From Rozella allomycis CSF55 (lineage: Eukaryota): a stretch of DNA of 64,000 nt. The notes beneath the pieces are model-generated. The model was not told where the DNA came from. It saw only the letters and a program-made list of their open reading frames with translations, and searched no databases. The translations under genes were made by a program, and so were the position numbers. Location of the stretch: NCBI GenBank assembly GCA_000442015.1, contig KE561209.1, positions 493,607 to 557,606 on the forward strand, given 5' to 3'. This document shows, one piece after another, positions 1,560 through 52,159 of the stretch (position 1 is its first letter; every line of letters starts with the position of its first letter).

Positions 1560-2638
1560 ATGAGCTGCTTGAATCCATTGGCTATTATTGGTGCTACAGC
1601 AGTCGGAAAATCCAGCATGGCAATAAACGTAGCGAAAATAATAGGGGCTGAAATCATATCGTGTGACAGTGTCCAAGTATCATTCATAGTTTTATAAAAG
1701 ATGGTGTATAGAGATTTAACTATTGGATCTAACAGGGTTGTAAATTACGAAAATGTGCCCCATCACCTAGTAGGGTTTCTAGATCTCGATCAACAATTTT
1801 CTGCTGGTGACTTTTATCGCAGTTGTACACACTTAATAAAAGTAAAAGTTGCCCTAAAACATCACAGGAAATACAATCCAGGAACAAGGTACCTTTGATT
1901 GTTGGCGGCGCCATGTTCTACTTGAAATGGCTTTTTGAAGGCCCTCCCCCAACTCCCTTACCTACCCCGATTAAAATAAGAAAAGAAACAGAAAAATTAA
2001 TAGAAGAAGAAGATAACTGGGATTCAACGTAATGAATTAATGTCGTCGTAAAAGATTTGCTAGGGTTGCAATGATAGATCCTATTTATGCACACACCATT
2101 GGATTCAACAACACTAAAAGGCTATACAGGCCTTTAGAAATATTTAAGATGACTGGAAAAGCAATTTCAGACTATTCTTTGCCAGCCACAAATTCAATTC
2201 GCGAATTGAAAGTACACTGTGTACAACTTCAATTATCTGGGAACACCCTCGTGGACATAATTAACAGGAGGTGTCAAAAGATGATAGAACTGGGTCTTTT
2301 GTCAGTAATAGTTCTTTGATGATTACAAAGTACAGGAAGTGGAAAGATTGATTTCAAAAGGGTACAACCCAAGTAATGCAGAATGGTTCAATTCTATTGG
2401 GTATAAACAGTGTTACAATTATTTCATTCTTGAGGAATCTAAACGAAATTTTGATAAATTGCTTGTTGAATTTCAGAATGCAACAAAGAAATATGCAAAG
2501 CAACAAGAGAGATATTTTAAAAAGAAAATAGATGCATGGTTAATTAAACAGGTGAAATATGATCCTGAAAATAAAAATGAAAACATCTCACAAGAAATCG
2601 TTAACATTTTTCAATCAAATCAAATGAGAAAAATATAA
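1560..2638 (+). CDS. tRNA dimethylallyltransferase (MiaA/IPT family)
   Basis: P-loop IIGATAVGKS, ISCDSVQ-VY, VPHHLVG, PLIVGG, RLYRPLEI, SIGYKQ, YAKQQ; 4 mini-introns. Confidence 0.9.
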
Positions 2639-2717
2639 AATAAAATATGATTAACAGACGTTTATTCTTCTATCTATTTTAAAATTTATCAAAATTTATA
2701 ATTATCGAACTTGATAA

Positions 2718-3965
2718 CTAATTGGAAGTGTCTAGAAACCCCATCACATCATCAACATCTTTTAGCCCTTCTAGAACTTTCAATAGCTGCAAAAGTTCTA
2801 CTTAAAATTTAAATTTAAAAGTACCTGTATCGTTAGGATCGCTAAACCATGAGGTTACAGGCAAAGCGTTTTTTGGATGAAACATGTACGAAGCAGGTGA
2901 ATTGTCAACAATAATTATGTTTTTCAACTCTCTGCCGAGTTTTCCCATGTCTTTCACGAAGATACCTTTGTGATTATGACATGCTTCTCGAAACAATCGA
3001 TGTCGAACAACTTTTTGCTTGTCCAATAAATCTATGACAGGGTCGGCATACTAACAAAGAAATTGTGGAAAATTTACTTTTGCTAAACTTGCAGTGAAGA
3101 CAACAATTTCGTACCACTCGCCAACTCTCTTTAAAAAGTGATCAACGTTGGGTCGTTTCAAAACGTACACGCTATGTATTGTGGAGTCTATCATAACTGG
3201 AATTACAAAATCTGGATTCGGAACAGGTTTAAATGATGAATGAACTAAAGTTTCGTCCAGGTCTAAAACCAAACACTTTTTTCCGGCATCTTGAGGAAGT
3301 ATGGGCTTCAAAAATCCCTATCTTTCTTTATCAGATTATTTACGCTGTTTCTCGTTATAGTCATATCATCGGTCTCGTTCGACGGCAAAGGTAAACTACG
3401 AATAATAGTCTTGTTTTTCTTAATCTCTATGTTTGACGCCAATTTAGCCTTCTTGTCATTTTCAAAGTTCAAGCAACAGGTGAAAAGATTCTTTATCGAA
3501 AAGCTATTTCGCTTAATTTTATCGTCCAATATAGTTGTATTTTCTTTACTGGGATTGATTTGCGTAATAGGATTGTCGTCATCTTTTAACATTGGCAAAT
3601 TTTCAGGAATTGTTGCTACTCTACTATTTGGTGGTTCTACAATAACTGGAATATCCTTGGCCAAAACCGTTCCTTCTAATCATTTTTCTTAAAACATATT
3701 ATTACTAGAACTTCCAACGGGCGAACTAGATTCTGAAGAGCGTCTACTACTTCGAGATGATTCTCTTTTTATTGCTATTTTTTCATGTGAATTAAAATTA
3801 CTGTGGCGTATGGAAACTCTTGATGGCGCTGGTGGAATGGCTACGCGGATTCCTATTCATGTATTTTAAAAATGATATACTTGCACTACTAGCTCGGCTT
3901 CTATCAGATATCGACCTCCGATCCGATATGTCGGGGCTTTGTGAGTCCGTCGAAACCGAGTTCAT
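2718..3965 (-). CDS. SCP/CTDSP (Psr1-like) HAD phosphatase
   Basis: [40 protein letters not shown] in the N-terminal region. Confidence 0.92.
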
Positions 3966-4027
3966 CAGTGGCGTAGTTACTCAAACACTCGCTCAAAATA
4001 TAGATTTTACACAGTTGATCAAATATA

Positions 4028-4644
4028 TTATTTATTTTTCGCACTCTTTGCATTTTTTACAATATGATTGTATATTCTAGCCAATGCTAATATAAGAAAA
4101 TGAAGTTGCATTTACTGACTTCTAAAGTTGTTATTTGCTCACGAAGATAGTACGCATCTGCATCTAACTGTTTGATACTCTTTTCAGCAATAGCTTGCTT
4201 CCCCAATAAGAGATCTTTTGCCTCATTAATTTCGTATTCAACCATGACGTTTGCCTATTTGAGAAAGAATACATAATAGTTACCCCGAGCCACAAACAAA
4301 CTTTATCAGTAACTGGTAAAGTAGCATTAGCATAAAGAGTATCGCTTAGCTCAAACCTAGTTTCTAAGGCCTGGTCTTTGTCCTCGTCTCTCTTTTCAAG
4401 AATGTAATCGATAGCACTAATAGATTTCTTAATTTCAGGAAGTTTGCCGCCTATTTTCATCTTTCTTTGAAGAATGTTAATTTCTGCGTGCTTGATTCTG
4501 TTTAACATTTCATCATAAGACTTCATTGCTTCCTCAGGTGTTTTTCCCTCTTGAAAATATTGCTCAACATTTTCCTGAATATTTAACATAAATATAACTT
4601 ACAAAGAAAGGCGCTTTTGGTATGGTCTCCTGGATGGTAGTCAT
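4028..4644 (-). CDS. PAC10: Prefoldin subunit 3 (VBP1/Pac10)
   Basis: IPKAPF, FELSDTLYANA, VCLWLG-ANVMVEY, TTLEVTLARIYN after splicing. Confidence 0.92.
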
Positions 4645-4672
4645 TTTTCTTTGCAAATTTCTAAAAACGCTC

Positions 4673-5418
4673 ATGGAATTTCAACCAGAGAGAAAAAAGG
4701 TAAATGAATATATATATTTGAAAATGGGGCACTATACTTTACAGACCTATTCTCTATGGGTCAAAAGCGACACCCATAGAAAATCCGGCGGTGGACGGTC
4801 ACACGCATAGGTGGACTATTTTTGTAAGAACAGTGGTTCCAAATGAGGAAGCCGGATCTTTTATCAGAAAAGTAGTTTTTCGACTACATGAGTCATTTAA
4901 TAATCCTGTTAGAAGTACGTCATGAATCCATGCATTACCAAGGCATAGAAAAGGAGCCATTTGAAATCCAAGAAACAGGTAACTTCATCAAAGAAAAAAT
5001 AGAGGATGGGGTGAATTCGACATAAATATCAAAATATATCCTCTTGACCCTACAGAGAAACCAGTTAGTCTTACTTTACCATTAAAACTATTTCCAGGCG
5101 ACGATACAATAACTTTACCAGACTCCACTATATTAAATGAAAGGTAATTCAAAGTCATGTAATTAAAAATGGTACGAAGAGCTAGTTTTTCATGAGCCTA
5201 CGACATTTATGTATCAGATTCTTACAGAAGATTCAACTGAAGATTACTCATCACATTTGCCGAATGAATGTAATTTCTTTTCCATTTAATAATAAGGGAA
5301 GAAAAGGGAAGAGGACGAAATCCAAAACATACGATTAGTGATGAGCGAAGTAGAAAAAGAAATTAAAATTCTTGAACGTAAAAAGGAAGAATTACAAAGT
5401 GAGCTACGTATGCTATAA
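4673..5418 (+). CDS. YAF9: YEATS-domain protein (Yaf9/GAS41)
   Basis: RPILYG, HTHRWTIFVR, FIRKVVFRLHESF, PFEIQETGWGEF, YEELVFHEP and a C-terminal coiled coil; 5 introns, two with non-AG ends. Missed by the ORF track. Confidence 0.92.
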
Positions 5419-5556
5419 TATTAGAACAATAAAATCTATATCATGGTTGCTATTTATAACGATTGGTTTAAAATTTATTTTCACTTTGTACCAATCATAC
5501 TTTTGCATGATACTTCTAGCTATATATAATACGAAAGTGTAATTTTTTATTTCAAG

Positions 5557-6094: not shown

Positions 6095-6101
6095 AATATA
6101 T

Positions 6102-10747: not shown

Positions 10748-12960
10748 CTACTAACTCCGAATCAGGAGAAACTTTACCTGGAATTGAAGTTTGAAAATGA
10801 AGACGCTCGAGAAAACTTTCATTGTGTCAGGAACTTTCTATCTCAAGTTGCACAACGTGAAGAAGCACAAGCAAGAACAACTGAGTTGAGAAAGGCATGG
10901 AAAGCAGGNGCATCCAAGTGAGATCATTACCTTCTTAAAGAACAAATATGGAAGACGAGACCTACAACTACAAAACTCGCTGCGAATGAAGATAAACAAC
11001 CTCTATCAAGAAGAGAATGAACCATTAACGGATTCCCTGAGAAGATATGATGAAGTATACAATGAATTCAAGAATGTGGGAGGTAAGGCGATGGATTATG
11101 AACTTGTGAATATGCTGAATCAAACGCTACTAACTCCGAATCAGGAGAAACTTTACCTGGAATTGAAGTTTGAAAATGAAGACGCTCGAGAAAACTTTCA
11201 TTGTGTCAGGAACTTTCTATCTCAAGTTGCACAACGTGAAGAAGCACAAGCAAGAACAACTGAGTTGAGAAAGGCATGGAAAGCAGGTCAAACAACAATG
11301 CATCAACTAGAAACCAAGGAGGAAGACGATGTAGCAATGATTACGAAACAAGTGAAGTCAATGAACTTTAGGCGACAAAGCCAAAGGACGAAGAAACGAG
11401 ATGGTACACTGGAAGATGCTACGTATGCGATGAAACAGGACATCGTAAGTTTGATTGCCCACTTTGGAAGAAACTGACTGCCAAAGAAAATGGGAAGGCG
11501 AGGCGAGAAGCCAAACCAAAGGAACAAGCCAATATGGCCGATGAAGATTCATCAAGTGATGAAAGTGAGATTGCATTAATTATGCGAGACGATGAAGAAG
11601 AAAGAACCATGATGATTATTGAAAGTGAGAATGAATATGTTGAATGGATAGTGGATTCGGGTGCGACGTCACACATGTCATCACACCGTGAATTGTTCGA
11701 GAATAACGTTGAGAAGAAAAACGCAAGAAGCGTATCAACGGCGGGAACAGAAACTATGAAAATTGAAGGATCTGGAGAAATACCACTTCGAGTTAAGAAT
11801 AGCAAGGGAGAAATAAAAGAGGTTAGGTTATACAATGTTTTACATGTTCCTTCAATGAATTCAAATTTAATGTCTATACCAAAGTTGTTGAAAAACCCTG
11901 AAATCACCGTTATAATGGAACAGGAAATGTGTAGTGTGAGAAGACGTGAGTGTGAGATCATGAGAGGTAAGCTGGAGAGACAGCTATTCACGATAAAAAC
12001 AATGAAGCGTGAGACGCGAGCGCTAAATGTAAGCGAAAAGACGAATGAAATGGACATATGGCACCGACGATTGGGACATGTGTGCGAATCATATCTGAGA
12101 CAAATGAGTAAGATTGATGTGGTGGAAGGCATACCATTGTTCAAGGAAAATAAATCACTATCGTTTTGTCACACATGTGCGAAACATAAGGCTAGAAGGG
12201 CACCATTTAAGGGAGCCCTAGTAAGAGAAATGACAATTGGCGCCAAACTACATACAGACATAATGGGACCTATGGAGAAGGAGACAATATTAACAATGAT
12301 TGATGACCACTCGAGAAAATGTTTTATTCATTTGATACCCAAGAAGTCGGACGCTAAAGACAAAGTAACGTCATTGAAACAATCAACGAGATCGAAACTC
12401 AAACTGGAGAGAAAGTAAAAGAGATAAGAAGTGATACTGGTGGAGAATATCTTGACAAGGAATTTAAGAGGGAATTAAAAAAACGGGGCATCATTCACAC
12501 CACTACAGATGCTCACACCCCAGAAATGAACCCTGTCGCCGAGAGGATGAATAGAACAATAATTGAAAAAGTGAGATGTCTATTGGAGGATGGGAACCTA
12601 CCTAAAGAATTTTGGGGTGAGATGGCGAATACTGCATGTTACATTCAAAATAGAACACCCGCTAAAATTTTGGGCGGGAAAACCCCAGAGGAAATCTACA
12701 GCGGTACAAAACCGGACGTGAGTCATATGAGAGAGATTGGAAGCGCTTGTTATGTACACATCGACACGAGCAAGAGATCCAAGTTAGACGGGAAGGCGGA
12801 GATACATTACTTGGTAGGATACGGTCATGGTCACAGAATGTTCAGAGTACGTGTCGGGAAAACGAATAAAGTGAAAAGAACAAAACATGTTAGATTTATT
12901 GATGAGAACGAGGATGAAAATGAGGATGAGACGGAAGAAGTTGAATTCGAAAGGGTTATC
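10748..12960 (+). mobile_element. Truncated, frameshifted Ty1/copia retrotransposon (gag, protease, integrase; no RT or RNase H seen)
   Basis: Zinc knuckle CYVCDETGHRKFDC, WIVDSGATSHM, WHRRLGH, HTDIMGP, IRSDTGGEY, NPVAERMNRTI; protease-integrase order; frameshifts near 11370 and 12370. Confidence 0.93.
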
Positions 12961-13779
12961 TTGAAATCATCATTCTCCCGTACCAATAACAAAATTTCCC
13001 GCACCGTCACAAAATAAATTTCAACGCACCACCGCGGAAACAAGTAATTTGCCGCATTTCTCCGTTCCATCGTCTATTTCTCCGCACCATCGTCATATTT
13101 CTCTGCAAAACCTAGAAAACGCATAAGCAATCTTGGCCACGACTCTTACCTTTATATTTTTTGGAATATGTTTCGTTGTATGTGTGCCTTATTGTGAAGT
13201 TCTAGATATTCGATTTTTTCTCATATAATATCCCTAAATGCACCATAATTTCCATTTGTTGTGCCTCCCGTCGGATTATGCAAAGAGAGAAATGCTGAAT
13301 ATTTCGTTGGTGCAAGAGACCAACTAATATATGAGCTTAAGCTGCGCAGGATGAAGCGCGAAAATGATTTAAATCTTTAGAGTGCGGTGAAAACTCGGCA
13401 GAAAGAAAGTAAAGATATAACTTAATTATAACAACTTTTTGATTGTCGATGTGGTAACACTTGTTCTGTGGGGTACATGTTGGTCATTTGCAATTGCAAA
13501 AAGTTCCATTTTTACCGTAATGTAGAACAACATGACCGTCCGATAAAATGCACCTGAAGCGTTCGCAAGATTAAAGAAGACATTGTATTGTTCGTTCAAA
13601 ACGACCCCGTTGAGTCCAACCAAAAAATATGAAAACTATGGAAATTGAAAAACAACATGGAAGAATAGGACTTTATTTAAATCACAACAAATTAGTTCCT
13701 TGAAAAAAAGAGTAAAACGCAAGGTAGGCCACATCAATCTTGTTGTGTTTTTAAAAACGAAAACAATATCAAAAATCTT

Positions 13780-18190: not shown

Positions 18191-20179
18191 TTCAACTAGT
18201 TTTTCTCTTTCAGGATTTTCTAGTCCTTGATTTTTTTTCTTAACATTAATTAAAATTTATAATGTTACAGTAAAGGAGGTTGACATTATTTTATCCAGCT
18301 CAATGAACATTGACAAATAATCGTCAATAGGAATTCCTTCTTTAGAAAACTCTGGCTCCGAATTTTCGATAGATTTTCAACATAGTTTCTCTTCGCACAG
18401 GCCCATAGAGATAATAAATAAGGAAGAGAAAATTTGTCAAGGTATTTTGAAAAAACAAAAAGGCATTCTTTAAAAGTCATTATATAATATTACTATCGGA
18501 TAATNAAACATTGACAAATATTCGTCAATAGGAATTCCTTCTTTAGAAAACTCTGGCTCCAGTATTTTAGATAGAGCTTCAATATAGTTTCTCTTCTCAA
18601 AGGCCCATAGAGATAATAAATAATGAAGAGAAAATTTATCAAGGTATTGTAAAAATACAAAAAGGCATTCTTTAAAAGTCATTATATAATATTACTATCA
18701 GATAATTCCAGTCCTCTTATAAATTTAGCTGTTGCATAAGCGTATCGCAAAATGATTTCAGAAACAATTTTCAAGGTTGCATGACCAACCCTGGTCCTTA
18801 AAATAGTTACCCAAAATTCAATTCCATCGTGGTCCTCAATGAGTTGGACAAATTCGTTTGATGGTAAATCGTGAAAACTTTTTTAAATATAAAATACACT
18901 TACAGTAAATGCTTGATTGTCAAAGCAATGCATTCAGCCTCTGGTGATTCTATAACGTTTATTAGCAAGCCTTTTAGTGAACACAATGACAAATTAAGAC
19001 TTATCTTATTCTTTTTACGAATTTACTATTCTGGTATTTGAATGCCATCGTTGTGCCAAAACAATAAATGGAACATTTTAGCGGCTTGCTTCCAAAGGCA
19101 AGGGGTATTTATTTTCGAGCAAACCATAAAATCAATCATTTCAACAAATGTCCTTTGAAAGAATTTAGAACAAAATTCGTCTGCATTTAAGTCCTTTTCA
19201 AGAGATGTATATTTCAGTTCCTTACTGTTTATTAAATAACAATGCACAAATGAATTCAGTAACAGGTCGAAAGCGTAGTTGTTTTTACCAGGGTGGTTTA
19301 GTAATTCGAAAAATATTAGCTTTAAAGCGTTAATGTCGTCCATCGAATGAGAAATTAAAGTGTCTATCATAATCAGTTATGAAAAAATGATATTCATTAC
19401 TTTAATCAAAATAGAGATTGATTCTTTGATGGAAACATCTTCTTTCAAGGTATCTAACACCTTTTCTAATATTCTTCAACGTCGTACCTTGTTAACATCA
19501 ACTTCAATCTTTTTCTGCTCAGAATAATAAATAATGAATTTCAATGGTCTGTAATTTTTTGGATGCAAGTATTCTGATCCCTTGTCCAATTTCTTGGTCA
19601 TAAAAGTTTCCAACAAATAAGAGAGGTCCTGAGAATTCAATTGCAATGAAATTTCATCTATGAATGGTTTATATGATTATCCAGTACCTTTTCCCGAAAT
19701 TATTTCTTGATTGTTAAATTGTGGAAGAGAAAGAAAGTTAGTGGTATTCATTTCAAGCCTTCCTTCTTTCCTCTCGTTATTAAAAGAATTGATGAATGTT
19801 TCATTACAACAATCACCAGTGTTAATTTTTTCCAGGGCCTTCTCACAAATGCTCTCTAATTGATCCATTAGCTATTAAATAAACAACAATTTAAATACCG
19901 ATAATACATGAACACTTTTTGATATCATCTTCATGGACCCGGCAAAGGTCTTATATTCATGTATAACTCTTTCTGATGGTAAAAACGCATTCAAAGTATT
20001 GGTAATGACTCTAACCGATCGCTCAACAACAAATTCTTGGGTCACATCTTTTATAAGATGCTTGAACATTAAATTGTACACTGAAATCAGCATTCCTTAT
20101 GCTTACCTTGGTCTCTAGTCTCAACCGGATGCAGCAAATTTATCAGCTTATTTCCTAGATCTAATTGACTTCCACGCAT
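18191..20179 (-). CDS. 5' part of a large uncharacterised helical protein gene
   Basis: ATG at 20179 and mini-introns linking ORFs in frame; continues in 9928-10746; one exon is present twice around the N at 18505. Confidence 0.65.
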
Positions 20180-23826: not shown

Positions 23827-24029
23827 GCAGGGTTTGTGTATGTATCACGCAACAATAATAAAAACAAAATCCATATTAGGAAACAGTCTCAATAGACATC
23901 GTAACATTTACAAAAATGCGTATGAGTGAATTTCAATCGTTTCCGTAACTTTCGTGATGGAAAAGCAAAATATTACAAAAATGTTTTGATCTTACGTTTG
24001 TTTTTGTTTCCACTATTCTTTGGTAAACA

Positions 24030-26010: not shown

Positions 26011-26041
26011 TTCTTCTATAAAATAAACAAAATAATCATAT

Positions 26042-27660: not shown

Positions 27661-27800
27661 CGGAAATTTTTAGGAACAAAAACAAACTGTGATACACAAA
27701 ACCTTTACTGGAAAGTGGAAACATAAACAAAACTTAAATCCTATTCTCTGTATTGTCAGTTTAATTGGTGGCGGGTACGTCTAATCTCTAAATTTCGCAA

Positions 27801-28367: not shown

Positions 28368-28493
28368 TTAAATTAGCAGCCAATAAAATGGTTAACGTGT
28401 AAATGAATTAAATATTATAAATTAAAATTAATAAATTGAATTTATTTAAAACCGTTCAGTTTTTCCAGACACCAGCCACAGTTATTTCTTTGG

Positions 28494-30557: not shown

Positions 30558-30632
30558 TAAATTCTTTTATGCATTTTATATTTTTCTCTGTGAATTTTCA
30601 AATTTTAAAGGCTAGGTTAAGAGAAAGAAGGG

Positions 30633-32844: not shown

Positions 32845-32906
32845 TACTTTCATATCCAATTCACATTTTGCTTCACAAACCCGTTCTAAAAATAGTCATT
32901 GTCCGA

Positions 32907-34596: not shown

Positions 34597-34731
34597 TAAA
34601 CTCTTTCACTTAAGACGTTCTGTTACTAAAAGATGTTTTTCTAGAAGATAATTTGTGCAACTATGAACATATCCGGGATGCATTCAAATCGAGATCCATG
34701 GTGCTATGAATTGAAATTTTCTTTTAATATC

Positions 34732-34817
34732 ATAATCACCTAGACCCTGAGGGCCTGAAGGGTTTTAGATGCAAAAAAGTAGAGCACATCGAATTTCTTG
34801 TATCTCGGGAGGATACG
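34732..34817 (+). ncRNA. Candidate small Sm-class RNA (unassigned)
   Basis: Hairpins AGACCCT/AGGGTTT and GATG/CATC, Sm-like AATTTCTTG, terminal hairpin GTATC/GATAC, in a ~270 bp non-coding gap. Confidence 0.35.
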
Positions 34818-34868
34818 TAAATGAATTAACATCGCCAACCGATTCAGTTTAAAGAAATAATTTATTAT

Positions 34869-35608
34869 TTAGCTTGAAAATTTCCAGACCTCATGGCTTT
34901 CTCCAATTGTTGTACCTCTTCCAATGACTTGGCGTTTGTTATAGCATTCTATAAAGGACAAGAAAACCAACTTACCTTAAAGCTTTCTTCCTCCAATTTG
35001 CGTTTCTTTGTGTATTTATCTAATCCGTCGCCAGGAATAAATGTTGCACTTTTGACTTCCTTACCACCAAAAACCTTTGCAGCCTCTTCTCTCTCCTTTG
35101 TATTGATTTTTCTAAAATCCAAAAGCTTAATATTTGGCATGTTATGTGCAATAAATAATCTGTAGTTTGGTCTTTTTGTAACCGGATTTCCTATTAAACT
35201 GAGACAGCGAAGGGTTTTAACTGAGAAAAGTGGCTCCAAGTCATTTAATTCTTGAATAAAGTTATTATTCATAATCAAGTTTTGTATATTGACCAAAGTT
35301 TTACCAAGGTTTGGTTCAATAGACATAACCCGATTGTTATTCAAATATATAGACTTAAGACGGTGCATAAGAGGAAAATTTTCGAGGCGTTTAATATCGT
35401 TATCTGAAAAGTCTATCGTATCGTGTTGATCCTAGAGTTAACCTTGACAAACATCTGTACTCTGGTGACAGCTAAATTTTCGATACTTGGTATTTTATTT
35501 CCTATTGTTGACAAAAGATAATATTTTACCTCGCAAGTCAAGTTCCATGTCATTAACAGCATTTAGAAAGGAAGCAGAGTACTCTATAACATCAACTGTT
35601 AAACGCAT
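34869..35608 (-). CDS. LEA1: U2 snRNP A' (Lea1/SNRPA1)
   Basis: MRLTVDVI, ELDLRGNKIPSIENL, DTIDFSDNDI, LSLIGNPV, YRLFIA, LLDFRKI. Confidence 0.93.
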
Positions 35609-35643
35609 CGAACTTTGAAATTTCCAATATTGGACAAGAAAAT

Positions 35644-36285
35644 TTATTTATCACATTGAGTTTCTGAATCTTTAACATTTAGTGATTTCCCATCTTGGCT
35701 AGTTCGTTTGTTCTTCATGTCTTTCAATCTTTGAATGAATTTCAAAATCTCAATTGAGCCTTTTGTATTTGGATGAAAACACCAAATTAAGAAAATTGCT
35801 TTTATGAGGGAATAAAATGGCAATGATTTAACTACTGATCCAAAAATTTGCTCTATCATGTTAATGCCGCCATGTACCAGCCAGTATGCCAGAAGTACTC
35901 TATATTTCATTGGGATAGCGTGATCATTTAATAACAACAGGTAAGTCTGCCGCGCTGCGTACCCATATCCCAACATTTGCGAAGAAGAGTAAGCGATGTT
36001 TTGAATTAATGAACTTATGACTATTGTCATAGATGCTGCGATTAAGGCCACCCAAATTTTTGTAGATATACCCGTGTTCTTTTCTAACAAACTGAGAATG
36101 TTTCCGATTCGATACTTTACTTCCAAATGAGAAATTAAAGGTTCGATGGATTTTTTCAGTGCGTTAAATGTGGGCAAAAGGCGTTCTGGGCATGCGTTTT
36201 CGATTTTGGAAAAGACGTTCTTAATCATTTCCGTTTCATTTGTTTCATTTTGATGGTTTTGGCCATCTTGAATTTCATGGTCCAT
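35644..36285 (-). CDS. REEP/Yop1/HVA22-family ER membrane protein
   Basis: LAYWLVHG, LPFYSLIKAIFLIWCFHPNTKGS. Confidence 0.82.
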   Translation of the reverse strand: MDHEIQDGQNHQNETNETEMIKNVFSKIENACPERLLPTFNALKKSIEPLISHLEVKYRIGNILSLLEKNTGISTKIWVALIAASMTIVISSLIQNIAYSSSQMLGYGYAARQTYLLLLNDHAIPMKYRVLLAYWLVHGGINMIEQIFGSVVKSLPFYSLIKAIFLIWCFHPNTKGSIEILKFIQRLKDMKNKRTSQDGKSLNVKDSETQCDK

Positions 36286-36348
36286 TTTGCGGGGATTTTA
36301 TTTCATAGTTACAAGATATTCATGAAATTTCTCTTTCAAAAATTATAA

Positions 36349-38440
36349 ATGACTACAGTCCTTTGTGAATTAATTTCGTTGAATGAATTTACCATAAAGG
36401 ACGATAGGTCGCTTTTCAAAATCTTTACTGGAGTTCAAGGACATAAATACAGTAGTCATATATGTTTGTCTTTATATCATTAGATGGCAAAGAAAAGGAG
36501 TGGATCTTTCCTTTAAAAGAATATCATAGTGTTCTAGAACAGGTTAAAAAAGAAAAACCAAACTTACTGTACAGAGAAATACCAAAGTTGCTTTTGGACA
36601 CTTTTCTATCACTCAAACCACTTCCACATGTTGATATAAATAAAACAAATATCCCAAAGACTTTGTTGCAAAAGCTTATGCCATTTCAGATAGAGGGAGT
36701 TCGATACTCAATTCAGAAGCAGGGCAAAATTGCAATATGTGACCAAATGGGGCTTGGTAAATCGGTTCAGGGTAAAAAGATCTTTATTTTGTTAAACTAG
36801 CGCTTGCTGTTGCGCTTCATTATAAACGTGAGTGGCCATTATTAATCATATCTCCATCTTCTCTGCTTAGCACATGGGAACAAGTATAATTTGTCGTAAT
36901 TAAGCATAGATGATTAAAGATTGGGTTTCAATGCCGGTTGAAGTTGGGGTAATTTATGAAAGCAAAAATGCGTCCTTTGATTCTGAACAAATTTATGTTA
37001 TAAGTTATGATTTGGCAGTTAAATTATCTGATAAAGTTGCTAAAAAGAAATTCGAAGTGATTATCGTAGTAATCTATGAATCATGATCCATAATTTCAAG
37101 GATGAGTGTCATTATCTAAAAAATGCCAATACAAAGAGGACAAAGACTCTATTACCAATAATACAGAAAGCAGAGAGGAGAATTTTACTGTCTGGAACTC
37201 CCGCGTTATCTAGACCGATGGAATTATTTACTCAACTTCAAATAATCCAGCCAGCGTTATTTAAGAATTTTTTTGATTATGGGGCGCGATATTGTGCAGC
37301 CTTTAAAGTAATTAGCATAGTATTTAAAGAGAGTCACATTTTGGATGGAATTTTAAAGGTGCTTCTAATGTTAGAGAGCTACAAGTTATTTTAGAAAACT
37401 TGTTCATGATCAGACGATTGAAAGACCAGGTTTTGTCGCAGCTTCCACCTAAAAGACGCCAACAAGTAAATTGATTAAATATTTTTGATATGATTTTTCT
37501 GCATCTGGAAAGAAAAGATTTGAATAAAATATCAAAGAGGAAAGATTACCCAAAATCACAAACGCTAGAGAGTTTACTAAATTCCAAAAATGGCCTAGAG
37601 TCTGAAATTAATGATAATTCATTATTGACATCATGGAAAGAAACAGCAGCAGCAAAGTTGCCATCAATGATTAATTATGTGGAAGGTTTAGTTGAATCTG
37701 GACACAAATTACTCCTTTTTGCTCATCATCGTGACATAATGGATGAATTTGAGAAACGGATTATAGAAAAGGTAAAAACAGTGCTTTTGCTTTAATAGAA
37801 AATAAATTACATTAGGATTGATGGATCAACCGCGACAAATTCTAGGTTTGCTAAATGTGATGAATTTCAAAAGAAGGAAGACATTAAAGTTGCTCTTCTC
37901 AGCATAACTGCTGCTAGCGTCGGTTTAACTTTGACAAGTGCCACAACTGTAGTGTTTGCTGAATTGTATTGGAACCCCGGTGTAAATTTGCAACATCATA
38001 ATGAAATAGGTTTTGGTTCAAGCTGAAGACAGAGCTCGTAGAATAGGCCAAAAAGATTCCGTTAATGTTCACTTTTTACTCGCAAAAGGCACCCTGGATG
38101 ACATATTTTGGTAATTTCATGAAAATATCTTTAAAGGCCTCTGATTCTTAAAAAATTAGACATCCTGGAAAGCGTTGGTCTATCCAAAAATGAGTTTGCA
38201 TTAACCACTCAAGTAGAAATAGATGAAAAAGGTCAGCAGCATTCCAATAAACGAAAAGCGAGTTTCGACAAGTCGATTAAAGACTACTTTGTCAAGAAAC
38301 CTCTCGAAACAATCGAATTATCTAGCGACTCTCCAAAGTGCAATGAAATAGAATTAATAACAGATGACAGCGACTTTGAAATTGACCAAGAGACTTTAAG
38401 AATACTTGACGAAATGGATAAGAAAGTTGTAAATCAATAA
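36349..38440 (+). CDS. SMARCAL1: SMARCAL1/HARP annealing helicase (SNF2 family)
   Basis: [68 protein letters not shown]. Confidence 0.92.
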
Positions 38441-38474
38441 AATTTGTATTTAACTACTACAGACTATCGTCAAT

Positions 38475-38785
38475 CTATTTCTTCGGAAGTTCAAACTTTT
38501 GTATTGTTTCCCAGACCATCAGGATATTCTCATACACTGCGTTGGAAGCTATTCTCAACATTCTAACAGTGTTGGATTTAAATTTTCTATCGGTGTATAT
38601 AGTTGTTTAAAATTACATATGGAGTACATTGTTGTTAGTTGACATTCCTCGTTGAATCTCATTGGTCTTCAACTCTTTATCTACATTTACCACTTTACAA
38701 ACTATATCGGCATGTTCACTTTTTTCAAAAGGTATCTCGATATTTCTATCTTGGCAAAATTAAAGAAAAGTTACAATTCAAACAT
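38475..38785 (-). CDS. PCC1: KEOPS subunit Pcc1/LAGE3
   Basis: Spliced MFELNIEIPFEKSEHADIVCKVVNVDKEL...FKSNTVRMLRIASNAVYENILMVWETIQKF; missed by the ORF track. Confidence 0.8.
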
Positions 38786-38841
38786 AGACCACAAACGACA
38801 AAAGTTTTGGCGATTCAGCCACTCAAAAGTCAAAATTTAAG

Positions 38842-40113
38842 TTACAATTTATTATTACAGATATATACACCAATATCCAATCTTTTGCTAAATGTTGGTA
38901 GTTTTCTTTCGAGGTTATCGTATTGACAAGAGATCTCTTCGCTTGTCTCATCAATCACAATGCGTTCAACCTTACACTTTAGTTTTCTCTCCAACGTTTC
39001 CACCAAATCTTTTATTCGAATGCTACTTACAAATATATTTAAGACCATCTTGTCCAATCCATTTAATACACGCGCCCTTACTCTAATGGATTGAATACCA
39101 TTTGATAAACTCTTCCTTAGGCTGTTCTCTTTATAGCTGCTACAATGATTCGGCACCAAAATGTGATCGGCACTTGGACGTCTTCCTGCATTTAAATAGG
39201 TTTGGGATCCTGTTGAAGGAAGGTCAAAAGAATCTATTTCGTTCGCGATTCTTATATCTTCCTCACGAAGATCAAAGAAGGTACCAAATTCAAAACTTAA
39301 ATTATTTTTTTCGGCCAAAACAGCAAGATTTTGAAGAATCATTTGCAAGGACTTAAGGTGCTGGTCTTCTAACCCACTAAAGCATGCGTTAATAGAACTA
39401 TTTGATACATTGCATTTTTCCAAAAAGGATTTAATCTCAAATCTGTCTCTGTATATATAATAAGACTTCAATGCATTATCGATTCTGCAACGATAAAACG
39501 AGCTTGAATTTAGAGTCAATGACGTTTCAACTGTTACTTTTTCGATATTTTGAGATTTGTTGGGCTCAATGAATGTCAAATCAAAGTTCGGAGGCAAGCA
39601 TTGGATTTCAACAACATAATGATCTACCCACTTAATATAACGGTCCCGAAGACGAAGAATTTGGTAACCTCTTTCCGATTGATCGGTTATTTTCACGATT
39701 TCACCTTCATTTAAATTGGATACTGTCCCTTTAACGTTATAGAGAACCATTCCGTACACAGGAAAGGGTTTTTCAGAATACTTTTCAACTCCACATTTGT
39801 ATGACTTGGGATAGTTGTAACCAATCTCTTGTTCAATTTCAAAATAATTCTGTAAGGGCTCGATGAAATCCTTCGAAATAGTTCCGCAAATTTTCGATAT
39901 AGGGTTTACAAATACAAGATTCTCTTCTTCTTTCAAAAATACATCGATAATCTGGCCTTTATGAGCGTCAGATACATCCTTTTTAACCACACAACGGTGG
40001 ACTTTTTGCATCTCTCCTGTGGTTTGAGAAGGACCCCCTGGAAACCTATCTTGTCTAAAAATAGGCCCCGCGCCTAAAAAAATAAACAAAACATGAATAG
40101 GGAAGTAAAACAA
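38842..40113 (-). CDS. Divergent Bem1/Scd2-like scaffold (SH3-SH3-PX-PB1-like); real start may be the ATG near 40011
   Basis: Long intronless ORF; SH3-like KVHR...NPISKICGTISKDFIE and PVYGMVLY...VVEI, PX-like YYIYRDRFE, PB1-like SIRVRARV...DLVETLERKL. Confidence 0.5.
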   Translation of the reverse strand: MFYFPIHVLFIFLGAGPIFRQDRFPGGPSQTTGEMQKVHRCVVKKDVSDAHKGQIIDVFLKEEENLVFVNPISKICGTISKDFIEPLQNYFEIEQEIGYNYPKSYKCGVEKYSEKPFPVYGMVLYNVKGTVSNLNEGEIVKITDQSERGYQILRLRDRYIKWVDHYVVEIQCLPPNFDLTFIEPNKSQNIEKVTVETSLTLNSSSFYRCRIDNALKSYYIYRDRFEIKSFLEKCNVSNSSINACFSGLEDQHLKSLQMILQNLAVLAEKNNLSFEFGTFFDLREEDIRIANEIDSFDLPSTGSQTYLNAGRRPSADHILVPNHCSSYKENSLRKSLSNGIQSIRVRARVLNGLDKMVLNIFVSSIRIKDLVETLERKLKCKVERIVIDETSEEISCQYDNLERKLPTFSKRLDIGVYICNNKL

Positions 40114-40146
40114 AAATCAAGAACTTTGAAGAAGATTTTTTAGATT

Positions 40147-41135
<989 letters not shown>

Positions 41136-41204
41136 AGTTTGGGAAATTTCAATTATCGAATGGATGGCGCAAGGAACTATAGTAAATCAAATTAGATTTA
41201 TTTT

Positions 41205-42218
41205 CTACTTACAAAACGGATATTTATATTTCCTCGACGATACAGTGTCGCAAAATAACTTTCTCATTAATTCTCTTTCTTTGACGTAATGTGCCGTTAT
41301 TAAGGATCTAATTTCGGAAGATAAGATTCGTCTTGACGTTTCTAAACGATTAAAAGGAAGATAATAATTAAAATAAGGGCTATGAACCTTGGTGATACCA
41401 AATTTGTACATGCAATAAGAAATGGTCAAATCATTGGCCCCCTTATAAGGGCACTTCCACGAATAGAAACTTGGAACCATTTTTATAAGAGCTGGTCCAG
41501 AAATTATAATTCCAGCACCCCCGCTATAAAACGCTATATCTTTTTGATATTCTTTGTCCCAAACATGACCTGAAAATGTATAAATATATCAATGGTTACC
41601 GAATGATATAAGCAATCTATGATCGTATCTATTCAGATGTAGGATTAGATTCTCTACGTTTACAAATGTGTCATCATCCACCAACATGATCCATTTGAAT
41701 TTCTCTAAGAATCCTTTTTTACTTTGAAATAACCATTGAAGCCCTTTAATTTGACGGTGTTGAGCGTCTTCGAATGATGACTTGCCTTTTAACTCCTCTA
41801 AACTGATCATTCCCAGATCCTCAATTTGTTCATCTGCAAATATATAGACTTGCGATACTAGGCTAAGCCAAGTTTCCCTTAATGCTCTCGTCCTGTCTTC
41901 AAACTTCTTCGATCCCATCACCACGAATAAGATGTCATTTTCAAATAATGGCTCTTTCGGCTGTCCAAACTCGGAAATCATGCTTTCCAGACTCAATTGA
42001 GTAATATATGATAGGCATGAACTTCTGGCAACTTTGTACAATACTTCATTCACTTCATTAACAGATTTCGGGGCTCTATTCTCTTGTAATTCAGTGGGTA
42101 TCATTGATATTTGAATCACTGTAGGATTTTCAAAGTAGAAATAGTAACCAAAAATTACAACTGCAAATATACACGACGATAAAATTAAATTCCTTGACAA
42201 TGATTTTGCCTTCAACAT
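41205..42218 (-). CDS. Fringe-like GT31 glycosyltransferase
   Basis: Type II TM anchor, RETWL, KWIMLVDDDTFVNVENL, GGAG, ANDLTISYC, TAHYV. Confidence 0.85.
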
Positions 42219-42323
42219 TTACAAAAATTCATTTCCTAGTTAGAATTCCTTCCTTTATTCCCTCAAACAAATGAACATCATAAATCATGTTTTGAAATCT
42301 ATTTCTCCATAGCCACAGCGTAC

Positions 42324-44340
42324 ATGTCAACAAATCCATTATTTTATTATTCCATACCGTTTATTGAACCACAGTCAGATTTCAATGAATGGACACAGCA
42401 TAAAATACAGGAAGGCGGAAGGTCTTTCTTTGGAAAGGTGTATTTCCAGGAAACTAGGCAGAGGCATGTGTTACCATTGACATGCATTTGGAACAAATCT
42501 CTTGAAAATCACGGATTTGTGCTTATTCCAGCTGACCGATTAAAGAAATTAGAGGAATGGGAACCGATTGCGCAATCATTAAAAAGAGTGAAGCATAGCG
42601 TAAATGGATTATGGATTGGTAGTTCTTGGTTGGATGCTCATCGCTACAAATTATTTATAGGTACGATTAAAATATACATAAATCAGGCGCAGAATCACAC
42701 AAAGGCAATGACTTATCATTTGAAGGTAAAACCATGCTGGAGAGAATGAAAAAAATGTTGGCAAAACAAAGATTATCAAACGTAACAAATGAAATTCCAT
42801 GGATTATGATGCGCTCCTCCCAATTGGTTGTCAGCAAGTAAGGCCCTATATTTTCTCAATATTGATCAATTCAACGAGCGTTTACTTCAGGTTTGACACT
42901 CAAGACATTAATGCTGAATGGTATACCTTTTAACAATCAGTCACTTGAAAATATAGCAATAGTAAAATATGGTCTGTAACATTAGAGGCTNTAATGGGAT
43001 ACCTTTCAACAATCAATCACTTGAAAATATAGCAATAGTAAAATATGGTCTGTAACATTAGAGGCTATAACTGATGCAAAACATTTGGAAGTACTTTCCT
43101 TTAGTAGAGCTGAAATCGGTGATCAGGGACTTAAAGGTAAATCTACAATTATCTTCTAAACAAGTTATCGCTTCATCAATAAAGAATTCCAACACATTGA
43201 AGTGGGTTGATTTATCTCAGTGCCAATTGACTGACTCTTCTGTGATTTATATTCATGACATACTTACAGTAATGATACGTGATCTAAATTACAGCATCAA
43301 AGTGCCATACTCCATTCCGACATGTGGAAAACCTCATTGAGGGCTGTCTATAGGGTGAACCAAAAAGAGACCAATTTAAAGCCATTGCGTAATGAAAAAG
43401 GTATTAAAAGACTGAATCTTTCTTGTAATCACTTTACTGATGAACTTTTGTCAATGCTTTTGAGTATTTTGGAGGATTCATTGGTTGTTGAAGGTATCAG
43501 GTGCAGTTTCACCCTAATAAAGCTCTTGAAGTTCAATTTAATGAATTCTCTGCAGATAAAATTCAAGAGATTCAAACTTTTCTTCTAAACAATAAGCATG
43601 ACTTGATTATGTTCGACATACGAAACAACACCGGCTACACTTTGGAAGACTACAATACTTTAAAGAAACATATTAATCCTTCCTTACCAGCAATTTTGGT
43701 AACTCTATTACCCTAATTTTATAGAGGTGGAAAGAGCTTGACCCAGAAGATCCTTTGGCTATAACTTACTGGAATGACAAGCCCATATTAAACGGAATTA
43801 AATCTGCATCAAACCCTAAACTTAAGAAGATCCCCAAAGTGAAACCTGTAGTAAAAGCAAAAGATATCGCAGGGAAGAACAAAATTATTCAATTAGCGAG
43901 GTCGCAAACTCCAAAAAAAGATACGTCACATAAAAGCAAATCAAATAGAACAAATACCTTTGAAAACAAATTAGTGGTCCGCAGTAGATTTACCAAAATA
44001 AGGGAAGATTCTCAAAGCGACGATAATTTGCCTCCTCTTCAAGATCGAATTTCAGAAATTAATGATATAAAAGTTAATTCTGCAAGCGGTTTCACAAAAG
44101 ATACGAATTTGCAAAATGTGGAGATTTTCAACGAGTTATTTGATGATTGTGTTCTGAAAAATTGTTTCAAAAAGCTTACAATTGATCGTCCAATTATAAA
44201 TGATCCTGACATTATAGATACTTTAAATCGAGGAGATGAGGGCAGTTATAAAAAGAGTTCATCATCCACTGATTACAACTTTATCACAGCTGCGATAGAG
44301 AAGTATACACTAAATAAATGCTTTACTTAGTTTACTTTAG
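42324..44340 (+). CDS. CEP78: Centrosomal LRR protein, CEP78-like
   Basis: ADRLKKLEEWEPIAQSLK, LKTLMLNGI, IGDQGLK, MWKTSLR, GIKRLNLSCN, FDIRNN follow the CEP78 motif order; ~75 bp duplicated at the N at 42992. Confidence 0.72.
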
Positions 44341-47895: not shown

Positions 47896-49661
47896 ATGTC
47901 AAGTAATTTTTGTAGGTTTTATTCAAAAGGAATATACATTGATCTTGTTAAAGGCAGTGATGATACTGGAAAAGGGACTGAAGCCTCACCCTATCTTTCT
48001 CTTTTGAAGGCATTGGAATTGAACACTTCCGCTTCCGATGATTCTTTTGCTGTTAAAAAGGATGAAAGTGGGGAATATGAACCTGCTTCAAAGTCTGCAC
48101 TGAAAAAAGCAAAAAGTGCTTTAGAAGCAAAAGAAAAGAAGGCCAAGAAATTGGCAGAAAAGGCCGAGGAGCAAAAAGTAAGCGAATAAGGTCTATAACA
48201 TAAAGGCTGCTGATGCGCAAAAAATGGAAGAAGAAATGGCTAGATTGGAACTAGCAAAGTCAATTAAGATTGAAGAAGATGCATCTTTGCCACAAGCGAA
48301 ATTAATTAAGCTTAGAGACACTGTTGCTAACCGTAGTCATAGAGTGAGAGTGAAAGGATGGGTTCATCGTTTAAGAACTCAAGGAAAGTCTTTAATGTTT
48401 GTTGTTTTGAGAGATGGGACTGGATTTTTGCAATGTGTGTTGAATGATAAATTATGTCAAACATATGATGCGATTACTTTGACTAGAGAATCAACAATAG
48501 AAGTGTTTGGAACTCTAAAGCTTGTTCCAGAAGGCAAAACTGCACCTGATGGACATGAATTGATAGTTGATTATTGGAAAGTGATTCATAAAGCCCCTGG
48601 TGGTTTGGATGCATTTGAAAACAAATTTAATACCGAGTCAGATCCTAGTGTGCTATTGGATCAACGCCATTTGGTTCTTCGTGAGGACAAAACGACGAAA
48701 ATTCTTAAACTTCGCTCAGCCATTCTCTTTGCGTTTCGTCAACATTTTTTTGAAAATGGATATTTTGAAGTTACCCCACCATGCCTTGTTCAAACACAAG
48801 TTGAAGGAGGATCAACACTCTTTCATTTGCAATACTACGGTCAACCAGCCTATTTAACTCAATCATCTCAACTTTATTTGGAAGCTGCATGCCCTGCCCT
48901 TGGAGATGTTTTTTGTATTCAAGAATCATTTAGAGCTGAAAAGTCAAGCACTCGCCGCCATCTTTCTGAATACACCCACTTGGAAGCTGAATGCCCATTC
49001 ATTTCTTTTGATCAACTTTTAGATCGCTTAGAATTCTTAATCACTGACGTTGTTGACAGAATAACAACTGGACCTTTCAAGGAAATGTTTTATGAAATGA
49101 ACCCTGGATTTGTGGCTCCAAAGAAACCTTTCCGTAGAATGCGCTACGTTGAAGCCATCCAATGGTTAAATGAACATGGAGTTCTCAAGAAAGACGATGA
49201 TGGAAATGAAGTTGGTCCTTTTGAATTTGGAGATGTAATTTATTTATTTCTTGTTTAATTAGGACATTCCTGAAGCCCCTGAAAGATTGATGACTGACAC
49301 TATCAACGAGCCAATCATGTTGTGTGAATTCCCCGCTGAAATTAAATCATTCTACATGCCACGTTGTTCCCACGATAACCGTGTTACTGAATCTGTTGAT
49401 ATCCTCATGCCTGGAGTTGGTGAAATTGTTGGTGGCTCTATGCGTATCTGGGATCTTCAAGAACTCATGGCTGGCTACAAGCGTGAAGAAATTGATCCAT
49501 CTCCTTACTACTGGTTCACCGATCAGCGCAAATACGGCTCTTACCCACATGGTGGATATGGTCTCGGTGTTGAACGTTTTCTTGCTTGGCTCTTGAACTT
49601 GGATCACGTTAGAGAAACTTGTCTCTTCCCTCGTCATTATGGTCGTCCATGCCAACCTTAA
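47896..49661 (+). CDS. DED81: Cytosolic asparaginyl-tRNA synthetase
   Basis: [65 protein letters not shown]. Confidence 0.95.
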
Positions 49662-49744
49662 ATAAATCTCATCTTTACCTTAAAGCTTTCTTGATTTATT
49701 TCATTTCTCAGTACTTTTTTCTTGATATTTCCTTTTTCAGACTC

Positions 49745-50298
49745 ATGATCTTTTCAACCCTAAGGAAATATTCTACACCCTTTATAACATTTCTGCTGGT
49801 TACATATCTGCTGTATTTTTGGAAGAAAAGAAAGTCCCTTCCGAAAGATAATACTCGAAAACTCAAACCAAGAAAGAAAATTACCATAGTTGCAAATAAT
49901 GTACTTGATTTAATATCATTTAATTGTAGGTATTATTAGATTCTAATCTTAATTCTATTCATGACAACTTGCGCCATATCGAGACTTTATTAGACAACAA
50001 TTTTGACGTGTATATTATATGCTTAATCGATAACATATCAAAAGAAATAATTGTGAGAAATGAACTATGTGCACTTTCTATAGAGCCACACAAGTTACTC
50101 TTTTGTTCTACACGCGAAGGAATAGTTGACATCGCCCGCCACATTAACCCGTTATGCCACATAGACACATTTATTGAAAATAGTAGATACATTTGTAGAT
50201 TTATTCCCGAAAATATACTCATTTCAGATCAAGACAATAAAGAATCTGGTTTCATCACATATCCATCAATTGAACATATCCACTTGGTAAAAAAGTAA
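49745..50298 (+). CDS. Pex22-like peroxin (N-terminal TM)
   Basis: TM followed by a basic stretch; FDVYIIC, HKLLFCSTREG, RHINPLCHID resemble the plant PEX22 motif KVLFCST...RQLEP.WHID. Confidence 0.65.
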
Positions 50299-50338
50299 CT
50301 AATAAATAATGATCAATATCCTAAATCATTTATTTTGG

Positions 50339-50940
50339 TTATATGGCCGCTCTGAATGCTGCTGTTCCAGCCCCTCCCAGTGTTTTGCTGTTTAATTTAG
50401 ACATTGCTGATTACCTGGATGTGGGATCTTCTTTTTTCAACAAAGCAATCAAATAAAATATTCCTGTAATGGACAAAAACACAGCGGAAACTACAAATTC
50501 TGAAAGTTGTACGACCCAATACAATACTGCACAAGCAATGTAGAAAATGGTTCTATATAAGGGTTTGGACGCAGTCTGCAAAAAGTTTCGTCTATTAAAC
50601 AATAATCAATTAGATTACAGTGGACCACCTTCACGAAAACATTTCATAAACAATGGAATTTCTAAACTAAGAACAATGACTCCTAGAACACTATTAATCA
50701 GCCAACAAATACATTACACAGAGACCACAGCAAATACTATAGCACCTGCTTTACTGAAATTGAATAAATTGGCTATCCCAGTGGCAAATATAACTATCAT
50801 GCATAAATCCAATGTATTTTACTGATTCCGGTTATGATAGCAGCCCTAATTAATTAAATAAATAATTCTTATTACCACTGACCGTAAACTGCAAACTTTC
50901 CTGACCTAACTTCCTCCTTGAACGAATCCCAAACACTCAT
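50339..50940 (-). CDS. TVP18: Golgi membrane protein Tvp18-like
   Basis: FKEEVRSGKFAVYGQW, LEIPLFMKC, C-terminal SKTLGG; 5 mini-introns. Confidence 0.75.
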
Positions 50941-51205
50941 TTTGTGGCGCAGATTCCTGTACCAATCTTATCATTGTTCCACTACAATTAAACATGGCAA
51001 ACATTAAATATCCCATCGTCTAATTGTACATTTATTCAACAAAACTATTCAATGACAATAAAGCTACACAACTAAGCGTTAGCATTTCCCGCCGTTTCGT
51101 TTCACTGAGTTGGTATATTCATAATCTAAAAATTAGAATTTGATTATATGAATAATATATGAATTTTGTTGTGTGAATTTTATTTTAGATCGGCAATTTT
51201 ACGAA

Positions 51206-52159
51206 ATGAATGAGGACCCATTTTATCTAGTTTTCGAGTAATTTCGAATCGCCAAAATCATAGGGATATATCTCTTTCACTAAACCGAATAGAAAAATTA
51301 CTACAACAGGATCGATCTCTTTGGAAGTTGGATGAAATTAAGAACCAGTTGAAGACAGTAGAATTAGATATTAATGAGCTATCAGATACAATTAATATCC
51401 TTTTTGTCTGGAAAATATCTTTGATTTGAGGTTTTTCTTAACTTATCAACGGGTAGTAGAATCGAACCCCTCAAAGTTTAACATCTTGAAAACAGAAATA
51501 GAGAAAAGAAAAAAGTTGGTCCAACAAACTCTAGAGAAAATTGCAGTAAGCTCCAATATTAGTATTCATTTGAAACATAGGCAGCTGATTATGATCATAC
51601 CACCTAGCAATGCCCCATCATTGATGAGTCCGAGTGTCAGGCAGTCGCCTACTACTTTTACAAAAGATTATAGATCGGTATAATTTACACTATATCTTCT
51701 TTAGGCATTATTAAACACTAATGTACCCAAGGATCCTCTACTTAACTCTCCAACAATAAATTCGGCAGACTTCATTCAAACTCAACAACAGCAACAGCAG
51801 GTAATATGAATTACATAGACATAACAGGAAATATTAGCAAGACAAGATGACCAACTTGATGTAGTTCTCGGAGCTATTTCAACAATAAAGGATCAAGGCT
51901 ACACGATTCATACTGAATTGTCTGATCAGCAAGGGTATGCAAACACGAAATAATCAACAGGCTATTAAACAAATTAGATATTCAAGTAGACTCAACTCAA
52001 GGTAGATTGAACACGGCTATGAATCGATTGGGAAAAATATACAATGACACAACTGGTAAGTATATGTGGAACCTTTAATGAGAAAAACATTCCACTTTTT
52101 GTATTATAATTTTAATATTTATCCTGATAGCTTTGCTCTTAGCTATTATATATATTTAG
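51206..52159 (+). CDS. STX6: Syntaxin-6/Tlg1 Qc-SNARE
   Basis: MNEDPFYLV, ELSDTIRVVESNPSKFNI, QDDQLDVV...ELSDQ SNARE motif, C-terminal TM. Confidence 0.88.
51395..51450 (+). other. U12-type AT-AC intron (copy at 57095-57150)
   Basis: 5' ATATCCTTT, branch-like TTTCTTAAC, 3' AC; removal gives in-frame TIRVVESNP. Confidence 0.9.

Follow-up and report, generated by a model that had tools for sequence, protein, structure and literature searches.

Few features of splicing are as strongly conserved as the AG dinucleotide at the 3′ splice site, and the closest described departure from it that we found is the TG 3′ splice site of human U2-type introns, which has been validated in 36 genes and is conserved as far as frog (Szafranski et al. 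2007, PMC2374985). In these genes TG is always an alternative to an AG lying within 28 nucleotides (nt), is never the sole site, and mutants in which AG was changed to TG are not spliced at the TG. Further examples of GT-TG introns have been collected (Parada et al. 2014, PMC4176328), and in fungal surveys GT-AG accounts for about 98% of introns and all minor combinations for far less than 1%, with GT-TG and Rozella going unmentioned in the survey passages concerned (PMC7072748). Here we analyse a window of 64,000 nt from Rozella allomycis CSF55 (contig KE561209.1 of assembly GCA_000442015.1, positions 493,607 to 557,606 of the forward strand), in which ten candidate mini-introns lack a usual AG acceptor and at least four of them, on the evidence of protein homology, are best read as ordinary spliceosomal introns that end in TG. 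R. allomycis is a zoosporic fungal endoparasite and kin to the microsporidia. A search of the literature on its introns and spliceosome, which did not extend to the original genome paper, found no description of non-AG acceptors; nor had the original prediction, in which these intervals were first listed, known of one.

Compared with the alternative TG sites of vertebrates, the Rozella candidates are alike in their GT start, U2-like character, TG end, purine at +1 and an AG within 28 nt, but they differ in that about 3-6% of the introns in the window would have TG as their sole productive acceptor, and in that these introns are 26-28 nt long, have no polypyrimidine tract and carry A at -3 as often as T. 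A second comparison is with yeast, where 3′ sites mutated from UAG to UUG or UGG are defective in the second step of splicing and are rescued by prp8 or prp22 alleles. The second-step fidelity factors of yeast are Prp8, Prp22, Prp18 and Slu7, and splicing no longer depends on two of them, Slu7 and Prp18, once branch point and 3′ site lie very close together. The proposed Rozella introns would share with the yeast mutants a U at -2, a retained terminal G and a 3′ site found by proximity to the branch point, but the yeast sites are engineered and poorly spliced, whereas those of Rozella would be natural and functional. In U12-type introns the 3′ site is likewise set by distance from the branch point and several terminal dinucleotides are tolerated, so that distance dependence and non-AG ends are common to both. 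The U12-type consensus consists of the donor [AG]TATCCTT and the branch site TCCTTAAC, which lies 10-15 nt before the 3′ end; on inspection none of the ten candidates has such a donor or a similar branch site, and only the candidate at 1677 (GTATCATTC) approaches the consensus, at 7 of 9 positions. Finally, the mini-introns of microsporidia, Paramecium, Stentor and the chlorarachniophyte nucleomorphs resemble those of Rozella in being very short, tightly distributed in length, poor in internal signal and furnished with in-frame stops where their length is a multiple of three, but to our knowledge all have been described as ending in AG, unlike the present candidates.

To set the candidates against the normal introns of the window, introns were predicted on both strands with a program of our own that chains codon usage and introns. 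It returned 192 introns, 149 of which are GTA...AG introns of 24-34 nt, and when run on the reversed sequence it returned no chains and no introns. After removal of the second copy of a tandem duplication of 5.7 kilobases (kb), 130 unique canonical introns remained, all with GTA by selection. Their lengths are tightly grouped (25 nt, 2 introns; 26 nt, 34; 27 nt, 28; 28 nt, 30; 29 nt, 23; 30 nt, 7; 31 nt, 4; 33 nt, 1; 34 nt, 1), with 115 of the 130 falling between 26 and 29 nt, which bears out the original prediction that most introns here are GT-AG introns of 26-31 nt. They close with TAG (67), AAG (40), CAG (14) or GAG (9) and have A at +4 in 72% of cases. Apart from GTA(A) at the 5′ end and (T/A)AG at the 3′ end, position profiles of the 130 introns are practically featureless, and neither a branch-point motif nor a polypyrimidine tract was found in them. 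These narrow lengths, together with the missing branch-point and polypyrimidine signals, fit a strong distance constraint. Elsewhere, the lowest median intron length of any fungus in a set that includes R. allomycis was given as 29 base pairs (PMC8042348).

The ten candidates, whose coordinates, strands and lengths had all been given correctly in the original prediction, look like members of this population apart from their last bases (Table 1). All begin with GTA and are 26-29 nt long, within the canonical range; nine end in TG and one, at 4700, in GG, with no CG acceptor seen among them and the sole GG case ambiguous. Their donors are GTAAAT, GTAATT, GTAATG, GTACTA and GTAAGG, with GTATCA at 1677 and GTAAGA at 25667, and the first exon base after the cut is a purine at 7/7 credible sites. 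Five TG candidates have lengths divisible by three and would need splicing, and an in-frame stop is present in all five, which is what genuine introns of a mini-intron genome should show; stop codons in the window look standard, with TAA and TGA ending genes. Beyond the candidates the downstream frames stay open for 19-115 codons. At none of the ten does an AG end 25-34 nt from the donor. Past the candidate end, 10/10 sites have their next AG 8-20 nt further on (listed offsets 8, 8, 10, 14, 20, 16 and 14 nt), where the intron would end at 35-47 nt and out of frame, and TG would therefore be the sole productive site. Excised elements of the ciliate type, bounded by TA, were also considered and rejected: only the 5144 interval slides to TA...TA, and the organism is a fungus.

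Reading frames alone do not identify the acceptor. The donors at 5144, 19400, 24213, 37466, 40374 and 42838 are also bridged by cuts 3 nt shorter or longer, and these frame-restoring cuts end in AA, AT, TA, TT or TC. Counts based on frame only therefore do not discriminate TG, and the original statement that no AG is usable and that only TG or GG restores the frame was too strong, given that longer GT-AG or GC-AG introns and cuts with other ends restore it as well. The exact 3′ end must instead come from homology.

Such homology fixes both cuts to the residue at 1677, 5144, 37466 and 40349, where removal of the exact interval restores a conserved protein. All four of these non-AG ends are TG, a dinucleotide that makes up 6.1% of the background. 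At 1677, which had been ranked among the weaker candidates, comparison with 2qgn_A, 3d3q_A and 3eph_A now argues for a TG cut. The upstream exon of this tRNA isopentenyltransferase gene (1539-1676) ends in a Q that aligns to residues 38, 42 and 37 of these three structures, respectively, and residues 39, 43 and 38 are matched by the V that opens the downstream VYRD; the Pfam IPPT match begins at this same V. Cutting at the AG at 24 nt would place an extra M between Q and V of the invariant DSxQ|VY motif, whereas the 27-nt TG cut leaves no gap. The 24-nt AG would thus be skipped for the TG, on the strength of the conserved motif, and all of the 130 canonical introns are longer than 24 nt.

In the YEATS gene, the exon upstream of 5144 aligns to residues 73-117 of the PDB YEATS4 structure 5y8v_B with its last codon, R, at 118, and the downstream exon takes up the alignment at Y119. 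That exon scores weakly on its own (expectation value 0.4), but all five of its matches are to the same protein at the adjoining position. A cut at 25 nt would insert a W and one at 31 nt would lose the conserved Y, and the nearest in-frame GT-AG or GC-AG alternative would delete at least 20 residues of the YEATS fold. A search of longer proteins with the YEATS exon gave two distant paralogue-like proteins only and no Rozella model.

The remaining two genes are represented by public models of Rozella type that match them at 100%, P0123 for the methylglutaconyl-CoA hydratase (AUH-like) gene and P0243 for the SMARCAL1-like helicase gene. P0243 uses the same donor as our candidate but a 72-nt GT-AG intron (37466-37537), by which 15 conserved residues are deleted. 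In the TG model, this segment aligns without gaps to 45 homologues, the first 45 of 82 long matches, and it can be compared with KIRQQVFLHVPEKDLKSFSKK in the closest relative (P0249), KRRQQVFLDLADKD in P0292 and KRRQQIFLSLDEKG in P0331. For an alignment-free count we took all 149 non-self matches, of which 103 had an LP.K motif with enough sequence after it. R stands at +2 in 102/103, V or I at +5 in 95/103, and L, V or I at +7 in 97/103. The 27-nt TG cut agrees with all three positions, whereas the 72-nt intron of P0243 and cuts at 24 and 30 nt each fail. A PDB search with the exon downstream of this site returned chance matches only. For the AUH-like gene, P0123 has a 47-nt GTATTA...AG intron (40331-40403, minus strand) and is without 7 residues of a helix present in 18/18 homologues, chosen among 120 listed. 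The TG model aligns ungapped to these 18 and keeps a GP found in 14 of them, and the AG at 18 nt runs directly into a TGA. The Pfam matches to both public models are shortened in line with the deletions, that of P0123 to ECH_1 being eight residues short of the profile span.

Table 1. Candidate mini-introns with non-AG 3′ ends in the 64,000-nt window (window coordinates).
Position	Strand	Length	Ends	Gene	Remark
1677-1703	+	27 nt	GTATCA...ATG	tRNA isopentenyltransferase	AG at 24 nt (1677-1700)
5144-5171	+	28 nt	GTAATT...ATG	YEATS (YAF9/GAS41-like)	
37466-37492	+	27 nt	GTAAAT...ATG	HARP + SNF2 (SMARCAL1-like) helicase	
40349-40374	-	26 nt	GTAAAT...TTG	methylglutaconyl-CoA hydratase (AUH-like, ECH_1)	
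24213-24239	+	27 nt	GTACTA...TTG	FCH/F-BAR + PH domain	
42838-42864	+	27 nt	GTAAGG...TTG	leucine-rich repeat	named CEP78 in the original prediction
19374-19400	-	27 nt	GTAATG...CTG	family unknown	
25667-25695	+	29 nt	GTAAGA...TTG	FCH/F-BAR + PH domain	weak candidate
4700-4727	+	28 nt	GT...GG (GG...TG if slid one base)	YEATS (YAF9/GAS41-like)	first intron
51546-51572	+			open frame	27 nt, GTA start and TG end; weak candidate of the original prediction

From these alignments TG is probably the productive acceptor at 1677, 5144, 37466 and 40349. The candidates would then be ordinary mini-introns of R. allomycis that end in TG instead of AG and that are presumably removed by the same U2-type spliceosome as the others. 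In an intron that is nearly free of signals, the second step may reach only those 3′ sites that lie a few nt beyond the branch point and some 25-31 nt from the donor. An AG inside this window would be used if present; where there is none, TG would be accepted, with U at -2 and the terminal G kept, the next AG, 8-20 nt further and out of frame, being beyond the usable distance. In eight of the canonical introns a TG ending at 25-27 nt is bypassed for an AG 2-5 nt further on, and internal AGs ending at 22-27 nt are sometimes skipped. TG therefore looks like a fallback where AG is missing from the window. The original prediction had the spliceosome measuring from the 5′ site and needing only a final G. 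The idea of distance is retained here, be it from the donor or from the branch point, with a preference for AG inside a narrow 3′ window; the need for only a final G does not hold, since about 95% of introns end in AG, the eight in-range TGs are passed over, and the ends fixed by homology are all TG. A broader proposal, for which we judge the chances to be about even, is that the U2-type spliceosome of R. allomycis positions exon ligation by a molecular ruler whose fixed reach, some 26-29 nt measured from the donor, ends a few nt beyond the branch point, that its requirement for A at -2 is relaxed, and that several percent of introns are constitutively GT-TG.

Several points weigh against TG introns. 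Splicing at TG is inferred from DNA and homology; the homologue sets were partly chosen by hand; and three of the seven main sites (19374, 24213 and 42838) are based on the reading frame only. Allowing for introns of 45-80 nt or more and a loss of 6-20 residues, every site has an in-frame GT-AG or GC-AG alternative, and a few canonical introns of 36-38 nt do occur, so that one of 47 nt is conceivable. When the gene finder was allowed one extra acceptor per run, it used TG 8 times, AA 12, AT 12, TA 14 and TT 12, and statistics of the terminal dinucleotide based on open reading frames (ORFs) only gave TG in 10/104. The contigs of four sequencing runs, whose DNA kind is guessed, contain no intron-sized joints over window positions 24000-42989, a comparison that covered the candidates at 24213, 25667, 37466 and 42838.

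Alternatively, TG could be a minor or regulated acceptor, as in vertebrates, with most transcripts spliced at the next AG, out of frame, and degraded, and the TG isoform forming a small productive fraction. The human sites invite this reading, never being the sole acceptor and always having an AG within 28 nt (PMC2374985), and an AG does follow within 8-20 nt at 10/10 sites here. Chance alone, however, should put an AG within 28 nt in about 78% of cases, as estimated from the AG frequency of the window; introns spliced at the next AG would measure 35-47 nt and exceed every one of the 130 canonical introns in length, and this would be a wasteful way of expressing housekeeping genes. We therefore regard a minor role for TG as unlikely. 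It is quite unlikely, too, that splicing follows the public annotation, with longer GT-AG or GC-AG introns, and that the proteins simply lack the residues in question. P0123 and P0243 are modelled in this way, but their introns of 47 and 72 nt lie beyond the 25-34 nt range of the 130, and the cost falls on conserved structure in each case: the AUH-like protein would lose its helix, the SMARCAL1-like protein a strand with key positions that 95-102 of 103 homologues retain, and the YEATS protein part of its fold. Each long intron would, moreover, enclose a frame-restoring TG placed exactly 26-28 nt behind a perfect donor of the GTAAAT type.

Errors of assembly or base calling, defective alleles or pseudogenes are very unlikely to account for the TG ends. 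The window does hold 12 single Ns and a probable local misassembly near 42990, and the 4700 candidate lies on a run of four G, but the same A-to-T state at -2 would have had to recur in at least four genes, the frames beyond which are not only open but still conserved. In addition, we compared the window between 24000 and 42989 with contigs of the four runs, of which X1 is possibly from the source sample and X3 is from another sample and study. The X1 and X3 contigs have no listed difference from the window at 24213-24239, 25667-25695, 37466-37492 and 42838-42864; depths in these samples are about 300-600, and at all four sites the X1 contig is single, with a depth equal to the total depth of the bin, which at 24213, 37466 and 42838 applies to both samples. 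At the sites covered by these contigs, T at -2 is thus real DNA and not an assembly error, and in X1 at least it is free of heterozygosity. The original prediction had proposed confirming the -2 base in raw reads, and for these four of its sites the T is now seen in contigs of two independent samples. Least credible of all is retention of the segments in the mRNA, with translation coping through ribosomal bypass or read-through of stop codons. In its favour, four of the seven main candidates measure 27 nt and are hence in frame, but those of 26 and 28 nt shift it, all begin with GTA and have canonical intron length, and when the F-BAR gene is read with TGA as X the Pfam FCH match stops at the insert (the same exercise with SMARCAL1 was uninformative).

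Three further sites are plausible candidates. At 24213, where a TG intron is plausible from the sequence, the upstream exon matches positions 1-26 of Pfam FCH and the match ends exactly at the exon end (expectation value 0.01, below the curated cut-off). An in-frame TGA lies across the 3′ boundary, and the nearest canonical alternatives, of 54-66 nt, would delete 9-13 residues. PDB searches with the F-BAR exons gave nothing relevant, and the exon downstream of 24213 was too short to score. A TG intron is also plausible at 42838, which would link frames open for 55 and 37 codons at phase 2 and contains an in-frame TAA (42839-42841); its closest rival, a 45-nt intron with a GC donor, would delete 6 residues. 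Its gene does encode leucine-rich repeats, but the name CEP78 is not borne out, the sole Pfam match being a weak one to LRR_6. The 19374 candidate joins open frames of 25 and 115 codons and contains an in-frame TAA. Its gene has no Pfam match, and alternatively the upstream gene stops at that TAA and a new gene begins at an ATG three bases past the interval. A TG intron there, although listed among the plausible cases, is weakly indicated.

The other intervals are less clear. The 25667 candidate has a canonical 29-nt rival, GTTTAA...TTCTAG (25681-25709), with a poor donor and an equal protein length, and the PH domain starts downstream of both. At 4700, the YEATS frame opens only past a TGA (4719-4721), with no in-frame ATG and no AG before 4743-4744, and some non-AG acceptor is therefore needed. 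From this donor, cuts in phase 0 at 22, 25, 28 and 31 nt end in GA, AA, GG and GC, none in TG, and the candidate first exon has 9 codons; the acceptor, whether GT-GG or GG-TG, is ambiguous. The 51546-51572 interval was rejected as an intron, since the frame is open straight across it from 51396 to 51680 and no intron is needed. It has a twin at 57246 by virtue of the tandem duplication, whose copies of about 5.7 kb occupy 51214-56900 and 56914-62600 and have identical ORF translations at an offset of 5700 nt. A WD-repeat gene inside the duplication resembles one for an axonemal dynein intermediate chain. Outside the ten, a further possible candidate on the minus strand at 38820-38845 (GTAACT...GTG, 26 nt), which falls close to the end of the gene that follows the AUH-like one, is laid out like 1677, with an AG too early, at 24 nt, and a TG in range.

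On the broader proposal, R. allomycis, a key early-diverging fungus, would provide the first case of an organism whose major-type introns make regular and productive use of non-AG acceptors, and its current gene models would contain systematic errors at TG sites. P0123 and P0243, at least, lack conserved segments because only AG acceptors were allowed in annotation, and the gene sets of R. allomycis, together with phylogenomic matrices built on them, probably hold many such errors. A natural TG system with nearly signal-free introns would also be a simple model of how the second catalytic step finds its substrate, addressing the roles of distance and sequence, the contact of the -2 base with the branch adenosine, and proofreading by Prp22, Prp18 and Slu7. 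Likewise, TG mini-introns bear on how the extreme intron reduction of microsporidia began.

The window itself has a G+C content of 35%. The exon at 48206-49234, of 343 residues, shows 99% identity to the asparaginyl-tRNA synthetase of Rozella allomycis CSF55, the next matches reaching at most 67%, and the nearest non-self proteins of the window, at 65-70% identity, are apparently from intron-poor genes. Close to the 42838 candidate, the peptide NGIPFNNQSLENIAIVKYGL is encoded twice within 42866-43052, on either side of a single N at 42990, and the contigs of all four runs deviate from the window at 42916, 42922, 42931 and 42940; a local misassembly or collapsed repeat is probable here. The contigs differ in other places as well. 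A segment of 243 bases at 26536-26778 (ends TA..CT) is skipped by X1 and X5 contigs while X3 runs through part of it, a presence/absence difference between haplotypes or strains, and a replacement between 26329 and 27485 occurs in X3 and X5. Clusters of substitutions at 39397-40231 and 37888-38102 are common to minority contigs of X1, X3 and X5 (in one X1 example at a depth of 187 out of 741), which suggests two diverged haplotypes that are locally 2-5% apart. Elsewhere, long ORFs of 348 and 219 codons at 11372-13014 on the plus strand, with a stretch like a CCHC zinc knuckle, look like the gag-pol region of a retrotransposon, and nine of the single Ns fall in the region at 10.7-18.5 kb.

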